Program-made: the position numbers and the translations under genes
IMG/VR virus record: IMGVR_UViG_2698536672_000010
Source of the DNA: a virus
Lineage: Duplodnaviria; Heunggongvirae; Uroviricota; Caudoviricetes
Reading direction: 5' to 3' (one strand)
Length of the DNA stretch: 10,206 nt
Part shown: piece by piece, positions 7,819 through 8,118 of the stretch
Layout of the letters: every line of letters begins with the position of its first letter
Position numbering within the stretch: the stretch's first letter is position 1
The notes under the pieces: model-generated
The model's input: the letters and a program-made list of their open reading frames with translations, nothing else
What the model was told of the DNA's origin: nothing
Database searches by the model: none

Positions 7819-8118
7819 GTGAGAAAGTTAAGCCGACTTGAAAAATACCACATGAATAAGGTTTCAATGCGCAGTCCGTCAAAGATTGCCGCCGTTACTC
7901 CTGCGGCGATAGAGATCGAAAAACGCGCGATTGAAAGAGAGAAAAAAGGGCAGTTCCGCATTGCCGCTCACCTTTGGCTTCAGTGTATGGATGTTGCTTC
8001 TGGTGATGTTGAACGTGCAAGGATCGCGGTTCGCAGGGACCAATGTATCACAAAAGGTAACGGCCTTCGCCGTGGCGACTATAGCGGCATAGGATGTTGT
8101 GGGGTGGTTTATGACTAA
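7819..8118 (+). CDS. PerC-like (Pch-like) transcriptional regulator, putative; start uncertain
   Basis: Segment EKKGQFRIAAHLWLQCMDVASGDVERARIAVRRDQCI resembles the PerC/Pch core I recall (E-x-K-G-L-W-R-R-A-A ... W ... R-R-x-x-C). Track start at 7819 is a GTG; ATGs at 7852 and 7867 are alternatives. The 3' end overlaps the methyltransferase start by 8 nt. Confidence 0.45.
   Translation: MRKLSRLEKYHMNKVSMRSPSKIAAVTPAAIEIEKRAIEREKKGQFRIAAHLWLQCMDVASGDVERARIAVRRDQCITKGNGLRRGDYSGIGCCGVVYD

Follow-up and report, generated by a model that had tools for sequence, protein, structure and literature searches.

A PerC/ANR-superfamily gene in a string of overlapping genes of phiV10/epsilon15-type prophages

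When a prophage gene carries the PerC label, is its product an activator of host virulence loci such as LEE, or does it serve the phage? The question is raised by a small gene in a stretch of 10,206 nucleotides of viral DNA, analysed here at its full length and called the window below. A first-pass annotation had placed a PerC-like regulator at 7819–8118, coupled to a methyltransferase gene and next to the integrase, and had suggested that it might act on host genes as a lysogenic-conversion regulator. We propose, with a probability of about 0.5, that the gene encodes an early-expressed backbone protein of Uetakeviruses, an adaptor with a PerC/ANR core that would act on transcription or nucleoid complexes through contact with other proteins.

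The gene and its source phage

The window is a prophage of the phiV10/epsilon15 type (Uetakevirus). Between 7400 and 9000 it is 98.3% identical to phage phiV10 and 97.5% identical to vB_EcoP_ZX5, and the PerC-like gene itself is 98% identical to phiV10 gp34 and 77% identical to epsilon15 gp31 over all 99 residues. The 7400–9000 stretch is present in 560 of 5426 complete E. coli genomes (about 10%), whose hosts are cattle, dogs, chickens and humans, urinary isolates included. In E. coli strain BCE049, the prophage adjoins guaA, the reported attachment site of ZX5 (PMC9782041). The gene also occurs in phages of Klebsiella, Enterobacter, Citrobacter, Kosakonia and Erwinia. A viral-contig search for related loci returned 80 near-identical (98%) copies, and a species-level genome scan returned nine loci.

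Neither the gene nor its PerC label is new, as both have stood for years in the phiV10 and epsilon15 records and in hundreds of RefSeq genomes. In the phiV10 record, gp34 carries a reference to PF06069, and PGAP gives the name “PerC family transcriptional regulator” to the gene in about 540 E. coli genomes. In the literature, we found no paper that tested phiV10 gp34 or epsilon15 gp31.

The ORF is genuine and lies exactly where it had been placed: 99 codons on the plus strand, with a GTG start and a TAA stop. Its product aligns over the full length with 42 homologues at 58–94% identity, and PHROG 868 matches residues 1–99 with an E-value of 5e-61. A homology search with the protein gathered 134 proteins, all from Enterobacteriaceae. 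In pairwise comparisons of 11 diverged genes, dN/dS is about 0.16 overall, with values of 0.14 for the core, 0.24–0.34 for the N-terminal extension and 0.25 for the tail, all approximate since dS is near saturation. The ORF is a protein-coding gene under purifying selection.

Public gene models differ in their start codons. PGAP begins an 83-residue product at ATG 7867 (NZ_CP042250.1, locus L002, 9468–9719), and the phiV10 RefSeq model has 88 residues from ATG 7852 (NC_007804.2, locus L001, 6453–6719), while epsilon15 RefSeq and PHROG have the 99-residue form. In 12 of 12 diverged homologues, an ATG stands at the position of GTG 7819. Upstream of that start, the homologues have a conserved GAGG..TGGAT, and the start itself lies in an ATGA overlap with the stop of the preceding small ORF. 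The internal Met codons are unconserved; Y10, H11, R18, T27, P28 and A30 are nearly invariant. Because of these four features, GTG 7819 is the true start and the product has 99 residues. The models of 83 and 88 residues are N-terminally truncated, apparently because the E. coli version of the gene uses GTG.

The helical core common to PerC, Pch and ANR

The assignment to the PerC family is correct at the level of a common core. On the whole protein, the Pfam model PF06069 (PerC) scores 30.1 bits against a gathering cutoff of 22.6 (E 5.8e-7), so that the family call of the first-pass annotation, for which it had proposed such a profile search, is confirmed. Many homologues carry a precomputed PF06069 assignment. 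The match is limited to residues 35–80, which correspond to profile positions 5–50 of 90. BLASTP gives 40% identity over 60 residues to EPEC PerC (taken from pMAR2). When the family alignment is compared by hhalign with a classical PerC/Pch alignment of 20 proteins, the probability is 96.9% (E 1.9e-10) and the match spans exactly 50 columns, residues 31–80 against PerC 2–51. A tblastn search of the ORF against all PLSDB plasmids, with E up to 10, did not reach the perC of pEAF. A homology search seeded with PerC alone found three proteins, and a core alignment of seven subfamilies was used instead. The invariant AA..W and the Cys of the seven-subfamily motif G-x-[FYW]-R-x-A-A-x-x-W ... R-x-x-C are both present in the protein.

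Like PerC of the EPEC plasmid pEAF and the group-1 Pch proteins of EHEC prophages (PchA/B/C), the protein is small, is carried on a mobile element and contains the core of about 50 residues, E-x-x-G-x-[FYW]-R-x-A-A-x-x-W ... R-x-x-C. Unlike them, it has no counterpart to the C-terminal half of the profile, positions 51–90, which in PerC and Pch reads ...IKxAVxRxHxxMG...FRNY. In the place of this half there is a family-specific tail, GNGLRRGDYSGIGCxGVVYD, in which Y88, G90, V96 and Y98 are invariant in the 42-sequence alignment. A conserved N-terminal extension of 30 residues is added at the other end.

The same stretch is matched by the model of the ANR proteins (Aar, Rnr; NCBIfam NF033650), at 23.6 bits and under the 32-bit cutoff. 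This model also matches true PerC (18.2 bits) and Pch (20.9 bits), and it cross-matches all of the PerC-family proteins tried, at 12–32 bits. One protein cluster (P0214) bears the NCBI name ANR, yet carries PF06069. The overlap of the two families has been noted before (PMC11773190). The PerC and ANR models describe one common helical core; as a consequence, the annotation of such genes may flip between “activator” and “anti-activator” names. The present protein differs from ANR in length, with 99 residues against a 54-position model and 60-residue structural matches in phages. The hallmark of ANR is that it accompanies an AraC/XylS-family activator and antagonises it (PMC4983702); no gene for such an activator is annotated in the phiV10 region or in the BCE049 prophage region.

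An AlphaFold2 model built from the 42-sequence alignment has a mean pLDDT of 75.5, rising to 85–92 over residues 30–80. Helices are predicted at residues 6–13, 28–43, 46–59 and 63–82, followed by a disordered tail at 88–99, so the core makes up most of a predicted three-helix bundle formed by the last three helices. Foldseek against PDB and BFVD gives nothing significant (E at least 0.16), and its matches serve for the fold class only. The nearest PDB folds in this sense are the three-helix modules of MIT and TPR proteins (E at least 0.18), and the nearest viral models are 60-residue phage proteins, one of them annotated as ANR (target-normalised TM 0.87, rmsd 1.1 Å). No helix-turn-helix appears in the protein by sequence families or by fold. 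Neither the protein nor the family profile has a sequence match in PDB, which holds no solved structure of any family member, and PADLOC has no match for the protein. In SfV orf40 and in gp46 of Pantoea phage AH07, the same core sits behind a winged-HTH domain. Since it is fused in this way to a separate DNA-binding domain, the core would not be the DNA-reading part, which suggests an interaction module.

Operon anatomy and putative control

The gene lies in a string of overlapping genes on the plus strand, which converges with the integrase gene (Table 1). The AlpA gene and the 38-residue ORF overlap by ATGA, and the 38-residue ORF and the PerC-like gene by GTGA. The MT-A70 gene starts at ATG 8111, within the PerC-like gene, and overlaps its stop by 8 nt (ATGACTAA); the coupling to a methyltransferase claimed at the outset is thus seen in the window. 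A further overlap, of the ATGA type, joins the methyltransferase stop to the DUF1382 gene. The integrase is a neighbour in a loose sense only, as about 840 bp lie between it and the PerC-like gene, occupied by the methyltransferase and DUF1382 genes.

Table 1. Features of the window around the PerC-like gene.
Feature	Position	Strand	Basis or remark
Three palindrome copies, cro-like/repressor intergenic region	4405..4467 (4405, 4436, 4453)	.	
Prophage repressor, two HTH regions	4523..5107	+	PDB 5D50 (SPC32H Rep), E 4e-42; Pfam HTH_3
Intrinsic terminator after repressor	5128–5147	+	consensus scan
Two TTACC-N5-GGTAA palindromes, putative repressor operators	5165–5179 and 5227–5241	.	flank the 5199–5227 promoter
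Small ORFs between terminator and nuclease gene		+	
PD-(D/E)XK nuclease	5712–6533	+	
RecT	6530–7411	+	
AlpA-family excisionase/regulator	7461..7709	+	Pfam Phage_AlpA 24.2 bits; PHROG 66
Conserved 38-residue ORF	7706..7822	+	phiV10 gp35 “membrane protein”
PerC/ANR-superfamily small protein, 99 residues	7819..8118	+	orthologue of phiV10 gp34/epsilon15 gp31
PerC/ANR-like core, residues 31–80	7909..8058	+	hhalign; AF2 pLDDT 85–92; AA..W and R..C motif
MT-A70-family adenine DNA methyltransferase	8111..8761	+	Pfam MT-A70 79.3 bits; PADLOC MTase_II
DUF1382 small gene, variable cargo, operon end	8758..8952	+	Pfam DUF1382 103 bits
Tyrosine integrase, convergent with operon	8956..10206	−	Pfam Arm-DNA-bind_3, Phage_int_M, Phage_integrase

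The only sigma-70-like promoter site found upstream on the plus strand is at 5199–5227 (TTGACA-17-AATCAT, 10 of 12 matches). From 5227 to 8952 on the same strand, a scan by consensus, which a weak internal promoter could escape, shows no promoter- or terminator-like site. In these scans, therefore, the PerC-like gene does not have the promoter and terminator of its own that characterise a moron. We regard 5199–5227 as the putative early-left promoter of the operon.

A palindrome, TTACC-N5-GGTRA, recurs in the window, with 19 strand matches against 0.64 expected, an enrichment of about 30-fold. Besides the copies in Table 1, there are others at 149, 2060, 2122, 4068 and 4244. The palindromes are also found upstream of several minus-strand early genes, among them the DUF1064 gene and the ORF at 3787–4050. 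The pattern suggests that a Rep-type repressor, or another regulator, controls many early-region promoters. At the equivalent place, the curated epsilon15 record has three ATTACC-N5-GGTAAT sites round a TTGACA box, marked “repressor / lysogeny”. The window repressor is a full-length homologue of SPC32H Rep (PDB 5D50), and overexpression of the ZX5 repressor shuts off lytic transcription (PMC9782041). Because the operon promoter is flanked by putative operators like those of epsilon15 and the window encodes a Rep homologue, we infer from sequence that the early-left operon, with the PerC-like gene in it, is under repressor control and that this gene would be silent in the stable lysogen.

Some parts of the operon vary among relatives. 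The 38-residue ORF (MSALLRHWIKWSGWYLFLASVSAWLYLLALIFREGWIK), which bridges the AlpA and PerC-like genes, is absent from the PGAP annotation; the phiV10 and epsilon15 records call its product a membrane protein, and the phiV10 record gives it one predicted C-terminal transmembrane helix. It has no Pfam match and is kept in most family loci. The phiV10 record has a single fused RecE-RecT gene (1761 nt; locus L001, 4252–6012), where the window and most relatives have two overlapping genes, for a PD-(D/E)XK nuclease/DUF3799 protein and for RecT, and in some relatives (L116, L118, L120) a YqaJ-type exonuclease replaces DUF3799. The position just before the integrase is taken by a small cargo gene that varies. 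In epsilon15, this place is held by a gene annotated “serotype conversion: transacetylase repressor” (locus L142, 5007–5189), preceded by a gap of 123 bp. An identification of the window DUF1382 gene with that gene was rejected, as there is no similarity between them.

Candidate role and alternatives

In the account that we favour, the 99-residue protein would be a backbone component of epsilon15/phiV10-type temperate phages, with the three-helix core common to PerC/Pch and ANR at its centre. The core would serve as a TPR/MIT-like protein-interaction module, one that has no recognisable DNA-binding fold. Translation would proceed through the coupled string of AlpA, 38-residue ORF, PerC-like protein, adenine methyltransferase and cargo. 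Since this string is placed in the early-left operon, with its operator-flanked promoter, the protein is most likely absent from the stable lysogen and made once infection or induction has begun. If it works as Pch and ANR do, it may bind a host or phage regulatory protein, or a nucleoprotein complex, and thereby alter early lytic or excision transcription. Candidate targets, named by analogy alone, would be H-NS-type silencing complexes or a transcription factor.

Pch has no recognisable DNA-binding motif and activates LEE1 only through the relief of silencing by H-NS/StpA/Hha/YdgT; in the work of Fukui et al., H-NS could not be co-precipitated with PchA (PMC4764244). The ANR proteins act via protein–protein contact with AraC-type activators and H-NS (PMC10148876, PMC11773190). 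The analogy with either family is loose because the C-terminal half of PerC is absent and the ANR score is 23.6 against 32. From the same analogy comes what may be proposed for the molecular partner of the PerC-like protein and for the direction of its regulation. Identification of a partner would explain how the small proteins of this widespread family work in phages and satellites.

The suggestion of the first-pass annotation, that the gene is expressed from the prophage and turns on host virulence loci such as LEE in the manner of PerC and PchA/B/C, would accord with the above-threshold Pfam match, with the 40% identity of the core to EPEC PerC and with the host field of the phiV10 record, since phages of this type infect O157:H7, a LEE carrier. 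The placement of the gene does not support it. The gene overlaps both of its neighbours in the operon, whereas virulence cargo is expected to stand alone, as the Pch representative does near EspG and IS elements; no promoter of its own was found, and that of the operon lies between repressor operators. The part of PerC and Pch that is missing amounts to their C-terminal half. Within the family, moreover, activation of LEE1/ler is restricted to PerC and the group-1 proteins PchA/B/C (PMC6265319, PMC11773190). PchD and PchE are inactive on LEE, and PchE represses csgD (PMC6265319). Gram-negative PICIs commonly carry PerC-family genes; LEE1 does not respond to the ones in EcCIEDL933 and EcCICFT073 and is repressed by EcCIMP1_025 (PMC11773190). 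The gene is kept in phages of the five genera listed above, and the tenth of the complete E. coli genomes that carry it includes strains from dogs, chickens, cattle and human urinary samples. Lysogeny by the whole phage ZX5 leaves adhesion, biofilm, stress response and virulence unchanged (PMC9782041). We consider LEE activation from the prophage very unlikely. Because the gene is phage backbone across genera, as judged by the phage hosts, a conserved role specific to LEE is unlikely, and the gene may nonetheless affect host transcription during induction. It would be wrong, then, to read “virulence activator” into the PerC-family label of a prophage gene: this subfamily has only the common core, belongs to the phage backbone and is apparently repressor-controlled. 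As a discovery this carries little weight; its value lies in caution and in the clean-up of annotation, with 99 residues as the conserved product.

The overlap with the MT-A70 gene raises a different possibility, that the protein is devoted to the phage adenine methyltransferase, as its regulator or partner, and controls the enzyme's expression, timing or activity much as restriction-modification controller proteins do. In all 25 distinct family loci that extend to the integrase, AlpA is followed in turn by the small ORF, the PerC-like gene, zero to three variable genes, the adenine methyltransferase, small cargo and the integrase. They span at least eight genera (E. coli, Klebsiella, Enterobacter, Citrobacter, Kosakonia, Scandinavium, Superficieibacter, Buttiauxella and Erwinia). 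The enzyme is of the MT-A70 type in 14 loci, of a 183-residue Dam type in seven and a C5+Dam fusion of 635–664 residues in four. The constancy of the methyltransferase between the PerC-like gene and the integrase, with the enzyme type varying, favours a partnership, as do the identical 8-nt overlap with a Dam-type gene in locus L133 and the overlap with a Dam (PF05869) gene in the early-right operon in an independent SfV-type subfamily, which consists of a wHTH domain and the PerC core. Against it, most family loci have one to three unrelated genes in between (DUF1317, NinX, DUF4406 and unknowns), a pattern that fits a cargo slot. The SfV-type lineage P0217 keeps a PerC-domain gene, which abuts a LexA-like gene, with Dam cleanly absent. 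Classical PerC-like genes, of 89–103 residues, are found in PICI-like modules or in effector/IS islands with no methyltransferase, and the PerC-like genes of the N4-like phage Pollock and of a P1-like phage also have no methyltransferase neighbour. The “DNA-modification” neighbours in AH07 are rejected as support, as the one Pfam match in gp48 is to a ParB HTH and gp49 has none. The protein is unlike restriction-modification controller (C) proteins in that it is a predicted TPR/MIT-like bundle with no HTH, and there is no adjacent endonuclease gene. The idea that PerC genes generally accompany methyltransferases was rejected, given the PICI-type, Pch, Pollock and P1-like contexts and the one SfV-type lineage. 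Since that related phage lineage keeps the PerC-domain gene without a methyltransferase, a partnership of an obligate kind is unlikely; the coupling is not a general feature of PerC genes, nor is it obligatory. Most simply read, the loci have a backbone gene and, beside it, a cargo slot that always holds some adenine methyltransferase. A similar weight goes to the proposal that the protein is a co-factor of the AlpA-type excisionase/activator and modulates excision, integration or the AlpA programme. Every locus has the same translationally coupled block of AlpA, small ORF and PerC-like gene (the 38-residue ORF itself in most family loci), and Gram-negative PICIs typically carry AlpA and a PerC-family gene (PMC11773190). 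In PICIs, however, the PerC gene follows primase and SSB genes and is not adjacent to AlpA, and the SfV-type PerC-domain gene comes after a replication gene, far from int/xis. We treat the partner of the methyltransferase and the co-factor of AlpA alike as minor possibilities.

It is tempting to join several of these strands. The PerC/ANR core may primarily be an early function in the backbone of temperate phages and satellites, with PerC/Pch and ANR as domesticated offshoots. In its original role, a small adaptor made upon infection or induction would remodel complexes of the host nucleoid or of transcription factors to the advantage of the element itself, for instance by lifting H-NS silencing from AT-rich DNA that enters the cell, and in Uetakeviruses it would be functionally tied to the methyltransferase slot. 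This wider proposal is speculative, and we rate it as improbable.

The two phage-related contexts compared above differ from the present one in further respects. The PICI PerC-like genes (EcCICFT073, EcCIEDL933, EcCIMP1_025) resemble it in that a PerC-family gene sits on a phage-related element with AlpA and integrase genes (PMC11773190), but they belong to a different, classical subfamily. The SfV orf40-type genes of SfV-, SfII- and SfIV-like phages are likewise early-operon genes with a PerC core and a stop that overlaps an adenine methyltransferase gene; they are unlike it in the N-terminal winged-HTH domain, in the early-right position after a replication gene and in the dispensability of Dam in one lineage.

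The slot itself is a tidy case of non-orthologous replacement in a phage genus, with three non-homologous enzymes at one fixed place (L107, L113, L118 and L120, about 4445–6400; L115–L117, L119, L130, L133 and L134; window 8111–8761). In satellite-like islands (L090–L095, L097–L102, L139–L141), the order is also fixed, with a DUF927/D5 primase gene, SSB and sometimes ProQ, and then PerC. Several of these islands have a capsid/protease/portal module directly after PerC, which is the place expected of a late-gene activator. On an E. coli chromosome (L124, 2501–3270), a gene for a 164-residue SfV-type PerC-domain protein stands with a truncated Dam gene among YfdP/YfdI-type genes, and this locus looks like a cryptic prophage remnant of the CPS-53/KpLE1 type.
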